40,000 bases of DNA from Monoglobus pectinilyticus (GCF_002874775.1 NZ_CP020991.1:2106451-2146450), one strand, 5' to 3'; positions 2-37,102 are shown, counted from the stretch's first letter. The notes: a model not told the origin generated them from the sequence alone. Translations and numbers: made by a program.

Positions 2-208
2 GATTATCAGAATGAATTTTATCAAGCTCATAAATATGACCTGAAAAGGCAAACTTTAGAAAATCTCAAAAATTTAGAGGATATATTAAGAATACCGAGT
101 GTGGAATTGTGTCTAGAAGTATATGCAGAAATATTATCCGAACTTAAGCAAGATGAAAAGAACAATATACAAAAAATGATGAAAAAGAAAGGCGATAATA
201 ATGAGTAG
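2..208 (+). CDS. Hypothetical phage protein, 3' fragment (start lies left of window)
   Basis: Open frame entering from the window edge (DYQNEFYQAHKYDLKRQTLENL...KKKGDNNE), stop TAG 206-208. No recognisable motif. Confidence 0.45.
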   Translation, partial: DYQNEFYQAHKYDLKRQTLENLKNLEDILRIPSVELCLEVYAEILSELKQDEKNNIQKMMKKKGDNNE

Positions 209-31028: not shown

Positions 31029-31277
31029 ATGAGTAATAACATAACAGCCGGAACAATAGCAAGAACCATAGTATTATTGCTGGCACTGGCAAATCAGGTA
31101 TTAGCGATGAGCGGTAAGCAGGTGCTTAATATAGCGGACGATGATATATATCAGATTGTCAGTATAATATTTACAGTTAGTGCGTCTGCTGTAGCGTGGT
31201 GGAAGAATAACAGTTTTTCGCAGGCGGCTATAAAAGCAGACGAATATAAAGAAAATATAAAAGAAAGGAATAATTAA
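31029..31277 (+). CDS. Holin (SPP1-family-like)
   Basis: 82 aa with two TM segments. AWWKNNSFSQAA motif and a charged C-terminus. Confidence 0.8.
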   Translation: MSNNITAGTIARTIVLLLALANQVLAMSGKQVLNIADDDIYQIVSIIFTVSASAVAWWKNNSFSQAAIKADEYKENIKERNN

Positions 31278-31278
31278 A

Positions 31279-32139
31279 ATGGCAAAGATATACATAGACC
31301 CAGGGCACAACCCAACCGGAAACGATACGGGAGCCGTAGGTTACGGACTAAAAGAACAAGACGTATCTGTGCAAATTGGAGTATTACTTAGAAATATGCT
31401 GATTAACAGCGGACAAACGGTAAAAATGAGCCGTGAAAATATAACTGATACGGTAGCGCATGAGTTAAACGCCAGTCTTGCAGGTAGGTACAACGCCGCC
31501 AATAGCTGGAACGCCGATATATTTGTCTCAATTCATTGCAATGCGGCAAATACAAAAGCGTATGGCTGTGAGACATATTACTGTACAGGCAGTACTCAGG
31601 GCAGGGCGTTAGCTGAGTGCGTACAGCCGCATATGGCCGCGGAGACGGAAAGGTATAACAGAGGTGTCAAATCCGCTAATTTTGCGGTTATAAGACACAC
31701 GAACATGCCTGCTATACTGGTAGAAACTGCATTTATAGACAATTATGACGATAACAGATTTTTAGCAAGTGAGGACGGAAAATATAAATGTGCGGTTGCG
31801 ATATATAAAGGTATATGCGACTATTTAGGAATAGAATATAAATTGGAAAGCGAGGACGAACTAATGAGCAGAGAATATGAAGAATTAAAGGCAGAAAACG
31901 ACCGTCAGAATGACATAATTAACCAAATGGGAACAGAACTTGAAGAATTGAGAAACACTGCAAAATCTGTAATTTATGATTACGTGGACGACAATATGCC
32001 GGAATGGGCTAGACCGACAATACAAAAGTTGGTTGACAAGGGATTTTTAAAAGGTGATGAAGAGGGCAAGCTGGGGCTTACTTATGACTTGATGAGAATG
32101 TTAATAATTAACGACCGCGCCGGGGTTTATGGGAAGTAA
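31279..32139 (+). CDS. Endolysin, N-acetylmuramoyl-L-alanine amidase (Amidase_3) with coiled coil and C-terminal wall-binding-like module
   Basis: YIDPGHNP, KEQD, FVSIHCNA and LVETAFIDN motifs. C-terminal VIYDYVDDNMPEWARPTIQKLVDKGFLKGDEEGKLGLTYDLMRML. Confidence 0.9.
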   Translation: MAKIYIDPGHNPTGNDTGAVGYGLKEQDVSVQIGVLLRNMLINSGQTVKMSRENITDTVAHELNASLAGRYNAANSWNADIFVSIHCNAANTKAYGCETYYCTGSTQGRALAECVQPHMAAETERYNRGVKSANFAVIRHTNMPAILVETAFIDNYDDNRFLASEDGKYKCAVAIYKGICDYLGIEYKLESEDELMSREYEELKAENDRQNDIINQMGTELEELRNTAKSVIYDYVDDNMPEWARPTIQKLVDKGFLKGDEEGKLGLTYDLMRMLIINDRAGVYGK

Positions 32140-32150
32140 TTAAACGAAAA

Positions 32151-32187
32151 ATAGGGCGAGGCTTTTAATAGCTCCGCCCTATTTTTC
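32151..32187 (+). terminator. Rho-independent terminator ending the late operon
   Basis: AATAGGGCGAGGC pairs with GCTCCGCCCTATT (imperfect), followed by TTTTT. Confidence 0.75.
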
Positions 32188-32222
32188 AATTAGATAAATA
32201 TTACCATAAAAAATTTAATTTT

Positions 32223-32384
32223 TTATTTATTACAAATTAATAATGTTTTGTAAACATTAAGCGAACCAACATAATATCCTTCACAATCATATACTTCCCC
32301 GAAACCGTTATGTTTTACTTTTATCGTTACTTCCTGTTCTTTGCCGAAAACTTTCATTGTTGTTTTAAATATTTTATTATACAT
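32223..32384 (-). CDS. 53-aa hypothetical protein (below the ORF-track cutoff), driven by promoter copy P1
   Basis: ATG at 32384, 8 nt after AAGGAG (32398-32393). MYNKIFKTTMKVFGKEQEVTIKVKHNGFGEVYDCEGYYVGSLNVYKTLLICNK. Confidence 0.5.
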   Translation of the reverse strand: MYNKIFKTTMKVFGKEQEVTIKVKHNGFGEVYDCEGYYVGSLNVYKTLLICNK

Positions 32385-32428
32385 TTCAATATCTCCTTAA
32401 GATTTATTTATTTCTTTATCTTACTTAT

Positions 32429-32457
32429 ATTATAGCACGCGATGCGTGCAATGTCAA
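32429..32457 (-). promoter_or_regulatory. Consensus sigma-A promoter P1 with a palindromic operator in the spacer
   Basis: On the minus strand: TTGACA (32457-32452), 17 nt, TATAAT (32434-32429). The spacer holds the perfect palindrome GCACGC-GAT-GCGTGC (32435-32449). Part of a 59-nt unit (32426-32484) repeated at 33094-33152 with 56/59 identity. Confidence 0.7.
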
Positions 32458-32503
32458 TGTTTTATTTTGAAAATATTGCACAAATTAAAGCTTCATTTTT
32501 TGT

Positions 32504-32692
32504 CTACTTTTTATCTTCGCTTTTGTATCTTAGTAACTTTTCAATTATTAAACGTTCGACATAGTCAGGAGGGGTTCTTTTCCCGAGCTCCCAATCTTGC
32601 CATGTGCGATGAGGAACGCCAATATATTTTTCAGCTTCTACTTGTGATAGCCCTACTTTTTTTCGGGTCTCCTTTATATTTATTATAATCAC
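32504..32692 (-). CDS. Small XRE-type HTH DNA-binding protein
   Basis: IKETRKKVGLSQVEAEKYIGVPHRTWQDWELGKRTPPDYV is a classic HTH_XRE layout. The start is uncertain: GTG 32692 overlaps the AGGAG SD, and the only downstream in-frame candidates are ATT/ATA. Confidence 0.7.
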   Translation of the reverse strand: MIIINIKETRKKVGLSQVEAEKYIGVPHRTWQDWELGKRTPPDYVERLIIEKLLRYKSEDKK

Positions 32693-32716
32693 TCCTTTTT
32701 GTCTTTTAATGAATTA

Positions 32717-32893
32717 TTATTTCTTATTTCTTAAAATTATTTCTATGATAGTAAATGTCAGTGTTATTGCTGACATAATTATAATAATATAGTCTATAAT
32801 TTTAATATTTTTAAAATTAGTATCAGAAATGAATAATATCATTAAAATAACAGTAAAAATACTTTGTAAATTGTTCTTTAAAAACTTGACCAT
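32717..32893 (-). CDS. Possible 58-aa two-TM membrane protein (weak call)
   Basis: MVKFLKNNLQSIFTVILMILFISDTNFKNIKIIDYIIIIMSAITLTFTIIEIILRNKK. No convincing SD. The sequence is AT-rich, so it could be a chance ORF. Confidence 0.3.
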   Translation of the reverse strand: MVKFLKNNLQSIFTVILMILFISDTNFKNIKIIDYIIIIMSAITLTFTIIEIILRNKK

Positions 32894-32914
32894 ATTGTTT
32901 TTGTGTGATAAAAT
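32886..32914 (+). promoter_or_regulatory. Plus-strand promoter pointing into (antisense to) the 33-aa peptide gene
   Basis: TTGACC (32886-32891), 17 nt, TGa-TAAAAT (extended -10, 32906-32914). No plus-strand ORF follows it. Confidence 0.5.
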
Positions 32915-32919
32915 TTAGT

Positions 32920-32952
32920 AAGGATGAGGGAGCCTTTAGCTCCCAAATCCTT
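32920..32952. terminator. Two-tier hairpin just downstream of the peptide gene (likely its terminator; also the 5' end of the putative antisense RNA)
   Basis: AAGGAT (32920-32925) pairs with ATCCTT (32947-32952). It encloses GGGAGC (32928-32933) paired with GCTCCC (32939-32944). TTTT follows on the plus strand; only a weak T-tract follows on the minus strand. Confidence 0.5.
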
Positions 32953-32963
32953 TTGAAAAAGTA

Positions 32964-33065
32964 TTACTTTTTCTTTTCGAGGTAGTCAATAATCTTTATC
33001 ATGCTATAAATTCCAGCGAGGATTGAAGCTAAGATTTTGGCTACCTTCTCAATTATATCCCACAA
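32964..33065 (-). CDS. 33-aa hydrophobic/amphipathic peptide with Lys-rich C-terminus (candidate type I toxin)
   Basis: TTG 33065 lies 7 nt after AGGAGG (33078-33073). MWDIIEKVAKILASILAGIYSMIKIIDYLEKKK, stop TAA 32966-32964. Sits between promoter P2 and the hairpin at 32920-32952. Confidence 0.55.
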   Translation of the reverse strand: MWDIIEKVAKILASILAGIYSMIKIIDYLEKKK

Positions 33066-33096
33066 TTTTTTACCTCCTTTCTTTTGGTATGTCTAT

Positions 33097-33125
33097 ATTA
33101 TAGCACGCAATGCGTGTAATGTCAA
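33097..33125 (-). promoter_or_regulatory. Consensus sigma-A promoter P2 with a palindromic operator in the spacer
   Basis: TTGACA (33125-33120), 17 nt, TATAAT (33102-33097). The spacer holds the palindrome CACGC-AAT-GCGTG (33104-33116). Confidence 0.7.
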
Positions 33126-33160
33126 TGTTTTATTTTGAAAATACTGCACAAAAATATCGC

Positions 33161-33248
33161 ATTTATTTTATGTAAATTGAACAAAATAAATGTGAGACAT
33201 GATATACATGTCTCACTAACTAATTATTTTTTTAATATACATATTATT
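33161..33248. repeat. Direct-repeat copy A (terminator hairpin plus conserved flank)
   Basis: Aligns with 37276-37359: shared atttattttat, gagaca..tgtctc hairpin, aactaattatttttt(t)aa(t/c)atacatattatt. Confidence 0.7.
33181..33216 (-). terminator. Rho-independent terminator of the 309-aa gene
   Basis: GTGAGACATG (33192-33201) pairs with CATGTCTCAC (33207-33216). On the minus strand it is followed by ATTTATTTTGT. Confidence 0.7.
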
Positions 33249-34173
33249 GGCTATAATCATATATTTTTTGTAATGCTTTGCGGTTTTCTTCAAAATAATT
33301 TTCCGTAATTGTATCCTTTCCATTTATGAATAATATATTGTTATTTATAAATTCATGTAATATATTACTATTTATAAATCTATGTCCAAAAACATCGCTG
33401 TCAAGGTGTTTTAATACTATATCACCTATTGTTTTATCCGAATGGTATTTTGCATAACTTTCGCAAAATATTTCAAGACTTGAAATTGATTGCACATTAT
33501 CCGGACTATTAAAATCGCATAATTGAAATATAAATATCTTTTGGTCAAGTCTTATTTTCGGATTATATTTTTTATCTAGTGTTTTATATGGAATAGATAA
33601 TTTTTTTAGAATTATTTTTACAAAATTATCTAATGAGTTTTCGTAGGATTTGTCTATATAATCCCAATATTTTAATTCCGTTTCTATTTTTGGAATTAAT
33701 TCTTTTTCTATAATATTTTGGTCTACCATAAATATTATAGATTCTGATTTACATGGTTCTTCAAAATCCCATTCAAAATTGTCAAAATCTTCTAAATATT
33801 TATTAATCTGTAGAAAAAACTCATTATCCACAGGCTTATTGTCAATTGTGCAATTAGCGCCAGCTGAACAATTGCTTCCGAATGTACAGTTTTTATTAAA
33901 TGTGTTATTATTGCCAAAGGTACAATGGCAACCGAATATTGAGCCACTACCAAAGTTATTATCTGAGCAAAAAAAACAATAATTTTTGAATTTATAACCC
34001 GAAAAGTCATTACCGTCCCCGAAAGCACAGCCGTCTTCAAAAACATATATAGCGTCTTGGGGTAGAATCTCTTTTTTAAACTTGATACTGCTGTAATCAC
34101 CCTTGGGACATTCAATAATACCATATTCGTTTTTTTCTAATTTTTTAATATCTTCTATTGTATATTTTTTCAT
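33244..34173 (-). CDS. Hypothetical protein: N-terminal Cys/Asn-rich hexapeptide (left-handed beta-helix-like) repeats plus unknown C-terminal domain
   Basis: Six-residue periodicity in CTFGNN NTFNKN CTFGSN CSAGAN CTIDNK. No signal peptide. Has its own promoter, SD (AGGAA, 7-nt spacing) and terminator. Confidence 0.65.
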   Translation of the reverse strand: MKKYTIEDIKKLEKNEYGIIECPKGDYSSIKFKKEILPQDAIYVFEDGCAFGDGNDFSGYKFKNYCFFCSDNNFGSGSIFGCHCTFGNNNTFNKNCTFGSNCSAGANCTIDNKPVDNEFFLQINKYLEDFDNFEWDFEEPCKSESIIFMVDQNIIEKELIPKIETELKYWDYIDKSYENSLDNFVKIILKKLSIPYKTLDKKYNPKIRLDQKIFIFQLCDFNSPDNVQSISSLEIFCESYAKYHSDKTIGDIVLKHLDSDVFGHRFINSNILHEFINNNILFINGKDTITENYFEENRKALQKIYDYSQ

Positions 34174-34299: not shown

Positions 34300-35403
34300 T
34301 TAATCAAAACAATTAAAACAATCATAACAATAATATGGTAATTTGTCAGTGTTGATTTTAATGTTGTCGGGAACGGATACATTTTTAAGATTTTTACAAC
34401 CAGCGAAAACACGATTTTTAATCTCTGTTTCGCTATTATAAATCTTTAATGTTTTTAATCCGGTGCAATCCGCAAAAGCGGCGAATCCAATTGTGATAAC
34501 GCTATCAGGAATTATTATGCTTTCTAATCTTTTACAAAACCAAAAAGCATATTCTCCAATTTCGGTAATATTATTAGGAATTATTATTGTTTGTAAATTA
34601 TAACAATTTTTAAAAGCATAATCCCCAATCCGTTCCGTTTCGTTTGACATGGTTACACTAGTCAGACTAGTACAATCACTAAAAGCGGAAGATTCTATTG
34701 AGATTACACTATGTGGAATAACTATACTAGTCAGACTAATACAGCCACTAAATGTACAGTGTTCTATCACTGTTACGTTGGGAATTTTTATACTTTTGAG
34801 ATTTGTACAATCTTGAAAAGCATAATCCCCAATCCATGTTACTTTTTTTGGTATGTTTATCGTTTCTAGACTTTCACAATTTTCAAAAGCACCACGCCCT
34901 ATGTATTCTATACAATCAGGTATAGTTATGTTTTTTAAGCTTGTACATTCTCGAAATGTACCGCCTGATATATAATTAAGACTATCAGGGAGTATTACAT
35001 TAACAAGATTCTCACAACCTCTAAACGCTTCACCGCCTATCAAGGCTAATCCCTCAGGCAACGTAATTTTCTTTAGATTTTCGCAATCTTTGAAAGAACG
35101 ATACCCAATTGTGATTATACTATCAGGAAGTACTATGCTTTCTAGACTTTCACAAAATTGAAAAGCATAATCTCCAATTTCTTCTAAGTTTTCTGAAAGT
35201 TTAATGCTTTTTAAATTATAACAAGTTTCAAATGCACAATCTCCTATTTTGATAACGCTATCAGGAATTGTTATGCTTTCTAAACTTGTGCGAACCCAAA
35301 AAGCATGATTCTTAATTTCGGTAACATTATCTGGAATATCAAATGTTCCATTTATTATATCCTCATCGTCTACTTCAATTAAAATATTGTTTTCTATTTT
35401 CAT
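34300..35403 (-). CDS. BspA-type leucine-rich-repeat (LRR_5-like) protein, 367 aa, no signal peptide
   Basis: About 13 repeats of the pattern [IV]xIPxx[IV]xxIGxxAFxxCxxLxx[IV], e.g. ITIPDSVIKIGDCAFETCYNLKSIKL. Acidic N-terminus MKIENNILIEVDDEDIINGT. Cys-rich tail PYYCYDCFNCFD. Confidence 0.8.
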   Translation of the reverse strand: MKIENNILIEVDDEDIINGTFDIPDNVTEIKNHAFWVRTSLESITIPDSVIKIGDCAFETCYNLKSIKLSENLEEIGDYAFQFCESLESIVLPDSIITIGYRSFKDCENLKKITLPEGLALIGGEAFRGCENLVNVILPDSLNYISGGTFRECTSLKNITIPDCIEYIGRGAFENCESLETINIPKKVTWIGDYAFQDCTNLKSIKIPNVTVIEHCTFSGCISLTSIVIPHSVISIESSAFSDCTSLTSVTMSNETERIGDYAFKNCYNLQTIIIPNNITEIGEYAFWFCKRLESIIIPDSVITIGFAAFADCTGLKTLKIYNSETEIKNRVFAGCKNLKNVSVPDNIKINTDKLPYYCYDCFNCFD

Positions 35404-35428
35404 TATAAATCCTCCTTTTAATTTTTAT

Positions 35429-36214
35429 TTACATCTTCAAAGCTTCGTTCCATGAAATACGTCTTACCAATTTAATAGTATTAGTGACATATATATCATC
35501 AATTAACTCCTTTTCAATAATATCACCCGGTTCAACCTCAAATAAAGCAATATTACTTAAATTGCCATGCCAATAATTAAATACATCGTATAGATTTTTA
35601 ACATAATGATATCCTCTTCTAAAACATTTTATATTATCAATAATAGGCATTTGTCTGCCTATGTCGTACTCCGTATCACGATATGAATAAGTTATTTTAT
35701 TTTCATCGCATATAATATCACATGCTTTGAAATTTCCTTTTTTTATTAGGTTTTCACAATGAACAAATGCGCTGTCACCTATGCGTTTTATGCTATCTGG
35801 GATATTTATTGAACTTAAATTTTCACAATTAGAAAACGCACATGCTCCAATTTCTGTAACACCGTTAGGAATAATTAGTGATTGCAAATTTGTGCAACCG
35901 TCGAACGTTAAATCACCGATTCGTTTCACACTATTAGGAATATTTATATATTCTAAATCTGTGCAATGTCGGAATGTCCAGTTATCTATATATGTGATCC
36001 CATCAGGTATGTGTACTGATTTTAAAAAGTTGCATTCTGCAAATGCGCCGCTCCAAATATATTTAACGTTATTAGGAATGTCAATAGATGTTAAATTTTT
36101 GCGACCTTCAAACGCATCACTGCCTATCTCTGTAACATTGTCAGGAATTATTACTGTTCCGTTTTCTATATCTTCATAAAAAACTTTTTTTAAAATATTG
36201 TTTTCTATTATCAT
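35429..36214 (-). CDS. BspA-type LRR (LRR_5-like) protein, 261 aa, with a distinct C-terminal domain (GYHY...EVEPG motif); no signal peptide
   Basis: The N-terminal ~150 aa are LRR_5-like repeats. The C-terminal part is FKACDIICDENKITYSYRDTEYD...CFRRGYHYVKNLYDVFNYWHGNLSNIALFEVEPGDII. Confidence 0.8.
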   Translation of the reverse strand: MIIENNILKKVFYEDIENGTVIIPDNVTEIGSDAFEGRKNLTSIDIPNNVKYIWSGAFAECNFLKSVHIPDGITYIDNWTFRHCTDLEYINIPNSVKRIGDLTFDGCTNLQSLIIPNGVTEIGACAFSNCENLSSINIPDSIKRIGDSAFVHCENLIKKGNFKACDIICDENKITYSYRDTEYDIGRQMPIIDNIKCFRRGYHYVKNLYDVFNYWHGNLSNIALFEVEPGDIIEKELIDDIYVTNTIKLVRRISWNEALKM

Positions 36215-36968: not shown

Positions 36969-37043
36969 TCTTGTTTACAAATACATTATACTATATAGTT
37001 GTAAACAAGTCAATACTTTTATTTGAAAATACTGCACAAAAAA
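36969..37043 (-). promoter_or_regulatory. Consensus sigma-A promoter P3 with an 11-bp inverted repeat bracketing the -10, plus the upstream block shared with P1/P2
   Basis: TTGACT (37013-37008), 17 nt, TATAAT (36990-36985). The inverted repeat CTTGTTTACAA (36969-36979) / TTGTAAACAAG (36999-37009) brackets the -10. Upstream block ttttatttgaaaatactgcacaaaaa (37017-37043) matches P1/P2. Confidence 0.7.
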
Positions 37044-37102
37044 CAAACATGTATTTTGTATATTTTTAACAAATGTTTGTTATAAACTATTATAAAGCGA
37101 AA

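Follow-up and report, generated by a model that had tools for sequence, protein, structure and literature searches.

Prophages of Clostridioides difficile carry type I toxin-antitoxin systems (CD0977.1-RCd11, CD0904.1-RCd13, CD0956.3-RCd14 and others) whose toxins are 34-47 amino acids (aa) long and usually unannotated (PMC7699646). In these systems an AGGAGG lies 7-8 nucleotides (nt) upstream of the toxin start codon, the toxin has a hydrophobic region and a Lys-rich end, and a convergent SigA antisense promoter is present (PMC7699646). In prophage SPbeta of Bacillus subtilis, yonT-yoyJ/SR6 consists of a polycistronic toxin mRNA and an antisense gene located between two small-protein genes, and the duplex is degraded by RNase III (PMC5848175). 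Here we describe a locus in a 40,000-nt stretch of Monoglobus pectinilyticus DNA (GCF_002874775.1, NZ_CP020991.1:2106451-2146450; the whole stretch is termed the window, and coordinates are positions within it), where a 33-codon open reading frame (ORF), pep33, is the first cistron of an operon that continues with ORF58 and a helix-turn-helix (HTH) gene, and where a predicted promoter on the opposite strand, P(as), faces pep33. An earlier note on this DNA had called it a type I toxin-antitoxin-like locus. The facing promoter is present and the peptide fits, but pep33 does not belong to a free-standing two-gene pair; the pep33-ORF58-HTH operon and the operator in its promoter, P(op), had gone unseen. 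On balance, sequence and analogy lead us to favour, guardedly, a type I toxin-antitoxin-like pair that forms part of an autoregulated prophage operon. The best explanation of positions 32504-33152 (minus strand) appears to be a self-contained prophage accessory cassette in which pep33 is kept under two locks.

By function, the prophage type I systems of C. difficile and B. subtilis appear to be closest to this locus, and yonT-yoyJ/SR6 appears to be the best architectural match. The C. difficile systems share with it the setting in a Clostridia prophage, an unannotated peptide, the AGGAGG spacing, the Lys-rich end and the convergent antisense promoter. The pep33 product differs from their toxins in lacking sequence similarity and in having charged residues that interrupt its hydrophobic core, and the operon differs from theirs in encoding a second membrane peptide and an HTH protein and in having a promoter with an operator. 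The likeness to yonT-yoyJ/SR6 lies in a prophage-borne, polycistronic unit with an antisense gene converging on the 3′ end of the first gene. However, SR6 overlaps the 5′ end of the second gene, whereas the antisense start predicted here lies upstream of the start of the second peptide gene (pep2; ORF58 in the window). The earlier note had compared the arrangement to txpA/RatA- and bsrG/SR4-type systems. The convergent facing promoter agrees with that comparison, but the embedding in an operon and the lack of an Rfam match do not; none of yonT/SR6, txpA/RatA and bsrG/SR4 has a cognate HTH gene or operator, and the locus gave no Pfam or Rfam match to those systems.

Operons of acr and aca genes with Aca2 have an inverted-repeat promoter and a repressor HTH gene at the 3′ end (PMC6765145, PMC13551039); the word "antisense" is absent from the second of these papers (PMC13551039). 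The present locus resembles them in its strong inverted-repeat promoter, in variable small cargo genes upstream, and in the use of one regulator type for several neighbouring promoters. It differs from the Aca2 case in that the HTH protein is 62 aa long and lacks the Aca2 dimerisation domain, and in its operator sequence and hosts (Clostridia). The cargo here consists of membrane-like peptides, unlike known Acr proteins.

A protein and an antisense RNA act together in two other described systems. In the immI region of phage P22, the strong promoter Pant (arc-ant) is repressed by an operon-encoded protein, and a convergent internal promoter, Psar, makes the sar antisense RNA, which silences the message left over after shut-off of the main promoter. 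The sar RNA acts at the ribosome-binding site of ant, the second gene, whereas the antisense RNA predicted here would target the first cistron, and the proteins are unrelated. In Escherichia coli tisB/istR-1, an amphipathic transmembrane helix of about 30 aa with interspersed charges is controlled by a protein repressor and an RNA antitoxin. The tisB repressor is host LexA, and the divergently encoded IstR-1 acts on the 5′ untranslated region (UTR); in the present locus the putative repressor is the cassette-encoded HTH protein, and there is no homology between the two systems.

The predicted promoter facing the first peptide gene in ten divergent modules

The consensus promoter reported earlier, TTGACA-17-TATAAT, was found at 33097..33125 on the minus strand (P(op)1). 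It has a TG extension and a score of 12/12, one of only two such matches in 4.5 kb, and is predicted to drive pep33. The opposing promoter, TTGACC-17-TGaTAAAAT, was likewise found as described, at 32886-32914 on the plus strand, with an extended TGn and a score of 10/12. Its predicted start (about 32920-32922) falls on the first bases of a hairpin, at the hairpin base, in keeping with the suggestion that the transcript would start inside it. P(op)1 and P(as) face each other about 180 bp apart. As stated earlier, no plus-strand ORF follows P(as), but its -35 box overlaps the ATG (32893) of ORF58 on the minus strand; its -10 box (32909-32914) is intergenic. Taken alone, P(as) of the window is only mildly unusual, as dinucleotide shuffling of its 98-nt region reached this score in 59 of 5000 cases (1.2%). 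It is weak evidence by itself, and its significance comes from the conservation of its position in related cassettes.

Nine further, highly divergent cassettes with the layout of the window were found (L030, L031, L040, L083, L084, L099, L102, L104 and L113). The order common to the ten modules (all ten-module counts include the window cassette) is P(op), Shine-Dalgarno sequence, first peptide gene (pep1; pep33 in the window), GC-rich hairpin, P(as), pep2 and HTH gene. The 5′ UTR is short, the Shine-Dalgarno sequence is strong, and the spacer between the hairpin and pep2 is AT-rich. Across the modules pep1 encodes membrane-type peptides of 26-48 aa with a Lys-rich end, and pep2, present in 10/10, encodes a transmembrane peptide of 28-58 aa and is often stop/start-coupled to the next gene. 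Between module groups, both the peptide and the nucleotide sequences are largely unrelated. A facing promoter was located at the equivalent position in nine of these ten divergent modules, always with a 17-nt spacer, which bears out the conservation that the earlier note had proposed to check. The match is perfect in L083, L104 and L113 (TTGACA-17-TATAAT, 12/12), and scores 11/12 in L040 (TTGACT-17-TATAAT with TG) and L084 (TTGACA-17-TAGAAT) and 10/12 in L099 (TTGACA-17-TAGGAT) and the window (TTGACC-17-TAAAAT); L102 has TTGACG-17-TAGGAT, L030 has TTGATT-17-TATACT, and the P(as) of L031 is weak (8/12). The -35 box is at most about 13 nt away from the pep2 start and in most modules falls exactly on it; the -10 box ends 6-18 nt before the hairpin. 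A role of P(as) in driving a downstream plus-strand gene was rejected, as the window has a minus-strand gene next in that direction and the neighbouring genes vary among modules.

Combined over the modules by Fisher's method, the p value for P(as) was 1.3e-14 (5000 shuffles per module), a figure to which partly non-independent modules contribute, since L083/L113, L084/L099/L102 and L040/L104 form related groups. When related modules are compared in pairs, the P(as) spacers differ but the hexamers have been preserved. These regions score only 5-9/12 on their sense strand, and in control operons that run from P(op) to the HTH gene but carry soluble cargo, the best antisense scores were 6-9/12 over much longer intervals. 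Taken together, these comparisons indicate that the facing sigma-70 promoter, whose activity is predicted, is a conserved, position-fixed and cargo-specific part of the module. It is likely to be functional in the cassette, because it is conserved in the modules and absent from soluble-cargo operons.

These data bear on the most sceptical explanation, that the plus-strand promoter is a chance product of AT-rich DNA and pep33 a non-coding leader, or an attenuation leader peptide for ORF58 and the HTH gene. The shuffle frequency at 10/12 given above leaves room for it; pep33 has never been called as a gene in public assemblies, including NZ_OY725739.1, and its two known alleles (two substitutions) are too similar to test coding constraint. 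Nevertheless, we consider this explanation very improbable, since the promoter position is conserved across modules of unrelated sequence and all modules have a first-cistron ORF of 26-48 aa with a strong Shine-Dalgarno sequence, a membrane-type product and a Lys-rich end.

Two Ruminococcus loci outside the ten modules were also observed, L094 (about +55..169 after the promoter) and L096 (+35..188), in which P(op) would drive a highly basic, non-hydrophobic peptide of 37-50 aa (..KLKHKLKKKK). The gene is faced by a near-consensus antisense promoter, TTGACA-17-TATACT, which suggests that antisense guarding extends beyond hydrophobic cargo.

The two peptide genes and the hairpin between them

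The 33-codon ORF claimed in the earlier note was confirmed at 32964..33065 on the minus strand. It encodes MWDIIEKVAKILASILAGIYSMIKIIDYLEKKK, a candidate toxin with a KKK tail, and starts with the TTG at 33065, 7 nt after the AGGAGG. The short 5′ UTR (33066..33096, minus) contains the AGGAGG at 33073-33078 as reported, but 18 nt from the -10 box rather than about 25 nt after the promoter, and folding of the mRNA is predicted to leave the Shine-Dalgarno sequence unpaired. The best 19-aa Kyte-Doolittle window of pep33 is 1.84, the longest uncharged run is 13 aa and the 18-aa hydrophobic moment is 0.55; by these hydropathy and moment measures it is nearer to TisB or ShoB than to Fst or PepA1. As a membrane/hydrophobic peptide of less than 60 aa with its own ribosome-binding site, pep33 fits the generic description of a type I toxin, and by analogy its product, which ends in a Lys-rich tail, is probably an amphipathic or membrane peptide and a candidate toxin. 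The likeness to Fst/PepA1-type toxins that had been claimed holds in part: size and layout are those of the C. difficile prophage toxins, but there is no sequence relation to Fst, PepA1, TxpA or BsrG.

Relatives of pep33 were sought widely. No family was found in Pfam, NCBIfam, PHROGs or PADLOC, phmmer gave no matches among 1.84 billion representative proteins, and an exact-sequence look-up was empty. Curated toxin profiles (Fst/Ldr, PepA1, TxpA/BsrG, Hok and others) were unmatched. The tblastn search in phages that the earlier note had recommended, run against 50,697 phage records with an E limit of 10, returned only noise, namely non-significant matches in Microbacterium phages (E about 2); no C. 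difficile phage was matched at this limit, and no homology to the CD0956.2/CD0977.1 family was found. On the antisense strand, Rfam antitoxin RNAs (RatA, SR4-type, Fst RNAII, Sib and others) gave noise only, namely SIB_RNA (E = 6), whose 16 bits fall below the gathering score of 56, and the 1.2-kb region had no DNA match among GenBank phages.

ORF58, at 32717..32893 on the minus strand, encodes 58 aa with two predicted transmembrane helices and is called "hypothetical protein" in thousands of gut assemblies. It has no obvious Shine-Dalgarno sequence, and a short motif, IKIIDY, is common to ORF58 and pep33. Its ATG lies under the -35 box of P(as), the only part of that promoter that overlaps it. 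Between the two alleles, A and B, ORF58 has 13 differences, 11 of which are at third codon positions (binomial p = 2e-4), and the six amino-acid changes are all conservative. Because the differences concentrate at third positions and the replacements are conservative, ORF58 is, judging from the alleles, a real gene for a small membrane protein. None of the family libraries searched assigned a function to pep33 or ORF58.

The hairpin said to follow the pep33 stop by 11 nt was confirmed at 32920-32952. It is a two-tier, GC-rich structure (-18.8 kcal/mol) that would form in both strands, as the 3′ structure of pep33 and as the 5′ stem-loop of the predicted antisense RNA. An equivalent hairpin occurs in 10/10 modules (-11 to -31 kcal/mol), and none of the ten has a flanking U-tract on either strand; the 8-nt tail of the window hairpin has 3 T in the sense and 2 T in the antisense direction, and the others are similar. 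A terminator scan listed the hairpin solely as a shortened plus-strand version. A classical Rho-independent terminator was therefore rejected, in view of the missing U-tract on both strands. As no sense-strand promoter was found ahead of ORF58/pep2 either, ORF58 and the HTH gene would need read-through from P(op). Attenuation by a leader peptide was also rejected, as the hairpin lies off the ORF58 start region and the attenuator geometry is absent.

The length of the predicted antisense RNA matters for a further explanation, in which P(as) works mainly by transcriptional interference, throttling read-through to ORF58 and the HTH gene by collision or occlusion, and the RNA has no pairing function. 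Near-consensus promoters facing each other about 180 bp apart would suit such a role, as would the location of the P(as) -35 box on the pep2 translation start in most modules; moreover, termination at the hairpin and the UUUUG behind it could limit the antisense RNA to about 35 nt. On the other hand, in 10/10 modules the antisense RNA is predicted to open with a conserved, stable hairpin, as a long-lived functional RNA would, and interference alone leaves the restriction of P(as) to peptide-cargo operons unexplained. Pairing and interference are not mutually exclusive, and interference as the main function seems unlikely to us.

Two other structures may set the extent of the antisense transcript. 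A second, AU-rich hairpin, GAAAAAGUAAUACUUUUUC (32954-32972), spans the pep33 stop codon and is followed on the plus strand by UUUUC; it may terminate transcription weakly, in which case the antisense RNA would be about 55 nt long. The terminator scan also found the palindromic terminator hairpin of the upstream 309-aa gene, at 33192..33216, a possible outer limit of a long antisense transcript.

Operator, HTH protein and the proposed control of pep33

The spacer between the -35 and -10 boxes of P(op)1 contains an operator-like palindrome, CACGCAATGCGTG (33104..33116), the putative site of the HTH protein. The palindrome CACGC-N3-GCGTG occurs at only two sites in the window, both inside copies of P(op). 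The second copy, P(op)2 (32429..32457, minus; operator 32436-32448), is predicted to drive ORF53 (32223-32384) and belongs to a duplication of 59 nt (32426-32484) located 668 nt downstream and 95% identical to the first copy. The pattern TTGACA-N3-CACGC-N3-GCGTG-N-TATAAT, which has 22 specified bases and includes no HTH coding sequence, matched 53 IMG/VR loci and 41 genome loci, 94 in total, where by our estimate well under one match would be expected by chance in 596 Gb. All 41 genome loci were from Clostridia (Oscillospiraceae, Ruminococcus, Acutalibacteraceae, Eubacteriales and others). In three of the loci (L026, L045 and L064) a second copy of the palindrome was observed upstream of the -35 box. 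A search with the 19-nt upstream element TTTGTGCARTATTTTCAAA gave mostly unrelated matches. A third, partial copy of the promoter-upstream element, TTTGTGCAGTATTTTCAAA...TTGACT-17-TATAAT, lies at 36982-37073 (minus); it has no palindrome and precedes further small minus-strand ORFs.

The HTH gene (32504..32692, minus) encodes a 62-aa XRE-type protein with the signature ..VPHRTWQDWELGKRTPPDYV.. (Pfam HTH_3 at 1e-6; family signature IPxRTxxDWExGxRxPxxY). By tblastn, this family was found in about 47 of 52 viral operator loci, compared with none of 14 unrelated control loci, and an ORF with the HTH signature lay on the same strand within 4.5 kb downstream of 56 out of 82 promoters. The HTH gene is usually the last gene, after variable small cargo genes, so that a 3′-end HTH gene and an inverted repeat in the operon promoter, as in Aca-type operons, occur together here, with the palindrome in the -35/-10 spacer. 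Pfam matches to Aca2_YdiL and MqsA were weak; that to Aca2/YdiL (PF08965) reached 19.8 bits, below the cut-off of 23.8, so the protein was not assigned to this family. Aca2 chains were among the closest PDB matches (E = 1.7e-3, HTH part only). Because the HTH family co-occurs with the operator and resembles Aca2, the 62-aa protein is probably an autorepressor of P(op) acting through the palindrome. A pheromone-receptor reading (SHP/Rgg or PrgQ/PrgX type) was rejected, as the HTH protein has 62 aa and no peptide-binding domain. Literature searches on the palindrome, the cassette or Monoglobus prophages gave nothing relevant.

In other phages, the same promoter, operator and HTH gene carry many unrelated small soluble, often acidic, cargo genes, and the promoter-operator cassette looks like a portable Aca-like regulatory chassis. 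This breadth of cargo, which recalls anti-defence or moron cassettes, speaks for a different role of the peptides with the same wiring: pep33 and ORF58 might encode small membrane effectors of benefit to the phage, acting, for instance, in superinfection exclusion or as inhibitors of a membrane-bound host defence or transporter, and requiring a burst followed by shut-off. The constant pairing of pep33 with a second conserved membrane peptide, its moderate hydrophobicity, and the two Ruminococcus loci whose non-hydrophobic basic peptide is also faced by an antisense promoter point in the same direction. However, the antisense promoter is specific to small-peptide cargo, which suggests that extra containment is needed, and the size, Lys-rich ends and AGGAGG spacing match those of proven prophage toxins, while the family libraries yielded no function for either peptide. 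Effectors of this kind are a serious alternative, though a distinctly less probable one in our judgement than a toxin-antitoxin-like pair.

Under the toxin-antitoxin-like reading, P(op), a sigma-A consensus promoter, would transcribe pep33, ORF58 and the HTH gene as one mRNA, and the exposed AGGAGG would allow efficient translation of pep33. Its product would be a membrane-active amphipathic helix, harmful at a high dose if TisB and the C. difficile prophage toxins are a guide. The HTH protein made from the 3′ end of the operon would bind CACGCAATGCGTG and shut P(op) off, following the logic of Aca repressors suggested by co-occurrence and by similarity to Aca2. From between pep33 and ORF58, P(as) would fire towards pep33, and the resulting RNA would begin with the GC-rich hairpin as a protective 5′ stem-loop; its perfect complementarity would take in the hairpin and either the 3′ portion or the whole of pep33. 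Pairing would lead to cleavage or a translation block of the pep33 segment, sparing ORF58 and the HTH gene. A burst of pep33 might thus occur while the cassette is unrepressed, e.g., on entering a naive cell, after which the repressor would shut the promoter off and the antisense RNA would clear residual message. Convergent transcription from the strong P(op) may silence P(as) until the repressor acts.

Several observations weigh against this account. The pep33 peptide is less hydrophobic than classical type I toxins (13 aa uncharged, 1.84), and its exposed Shine-Dalgarno sequence and short 5′ UTR are unlike those of hok or bsrG mRNAs. No terminator could be identified for the antisense RNA, which might stop after the hairpin and UUUUG, at about 35 nt. 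The proposed mechanism leaves the role of ORF58 unexplained, and it is co-occurrence that suggests binding of the HTH protein to the palindrome. The weak facing promoter of L031 (8/12) and the relatedness of some of the modules also count on this side.

More tentatively, we propose that an Aca-like HTH protein with a fixed operator and an internal convergent antisense promoter jointly gate a tiny membrane peptide pair, in an undescribed class of cassettes that is widespread in gut Clostridia prophages. If this is true, a protein-plus-RNA double lock would control a new family of phage membrane effectors or toxins, whose role might be addiction, abortive infection, exclusion or anti-defence, and accessory genes of phages in Oscillospiraceae, Ruminococcus, Acutalibacteraceae and Monoglobus would share the chassis as a general plug-in module for their expression. 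Beyond a handful of model species, type I systems are largely unmapped, because annotation misses both the peptide and the RNA. An operator-bearing consensus promoter, a small ORF, a GC-rich hairpin and a second small ORF whose start is covered by a facing consensus promoter could serve as a signature for systematic discovery in phages of gut Clostridia. The combination of a cassette-encoded repressor and a cis-antisense RNA would be a compact natural burst-then-silence circuit. For Clostridia, in which engineering is difficult, the operator and HTH protein may provide a portable regulatory element.

Genomic context and alleles of the cassette

The earlier guess of a Clostridia prophage was right, as the host is Monoglobus pectinilyticus and the window is a prophage. 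On its plus strand lie genes for an SPP1-type holin (31029-31277) and an Amidase_3 endolysin (31279-32139). The accessory block that follows on the minus strand comprises ORF53, the 62-aa HTH gene, ORF58, pep33, the gene for the 309-aa protein and genes for BspA-type leucine-rich repeat (LRR) proteins.

For comparison of close relatives, an IMG/VR contig, a Monoglobus "plasmid 15" record, 13 metagenome loci and eight contigs with ORF58 were used. The cassette is present in thousands of human-gut assemblies, yet in only two alleles, about 5% apart. NZ_OY725739.1 is identical to the window over 32100-33300 except for 2 nt, and allele B was found in more than 2000 blocks of a public assembly index. 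In pep33, alleles A and B differ by I23L and a single synonymous substitution. The sole change in the hairpin of allele B is a 1-nt deletion in the loop, and the P(as) hexamers are unchanged. The homology between the alleles starts about 35 nt upstream of the -35 box of P(op), which suggests that the cassette boundary is located there.

In eight contigs with allele B, the common one (L128-L135), the cassette was observed directly between the endolysin gene and a divergent gene for an 89-aa HTH_3 protein beside chromosomal ruvC, and the 309-aa gene, the LRR genes and ORF53 were absent. This arrangement suggests that the cassette lies at the prophage end and that the version in the window has gained accessory genes.

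Two further features of the neighbourhood were observed. A perfect bidirectional terminator with 26-nt arms (32141-32192) is common to the endolysin gene on the plus strand and the accessory block on the minus strand. Two adjacent BspA-type LRR proteins are encoded at 34300-36214 (minus), with a strong repeat periodicity of 69 nt; in the corresponding Monoglobus record one longer LRR gene takes their place. From these sequences, the BspA-type LRR region appears to recombine or vary between prophage copies.

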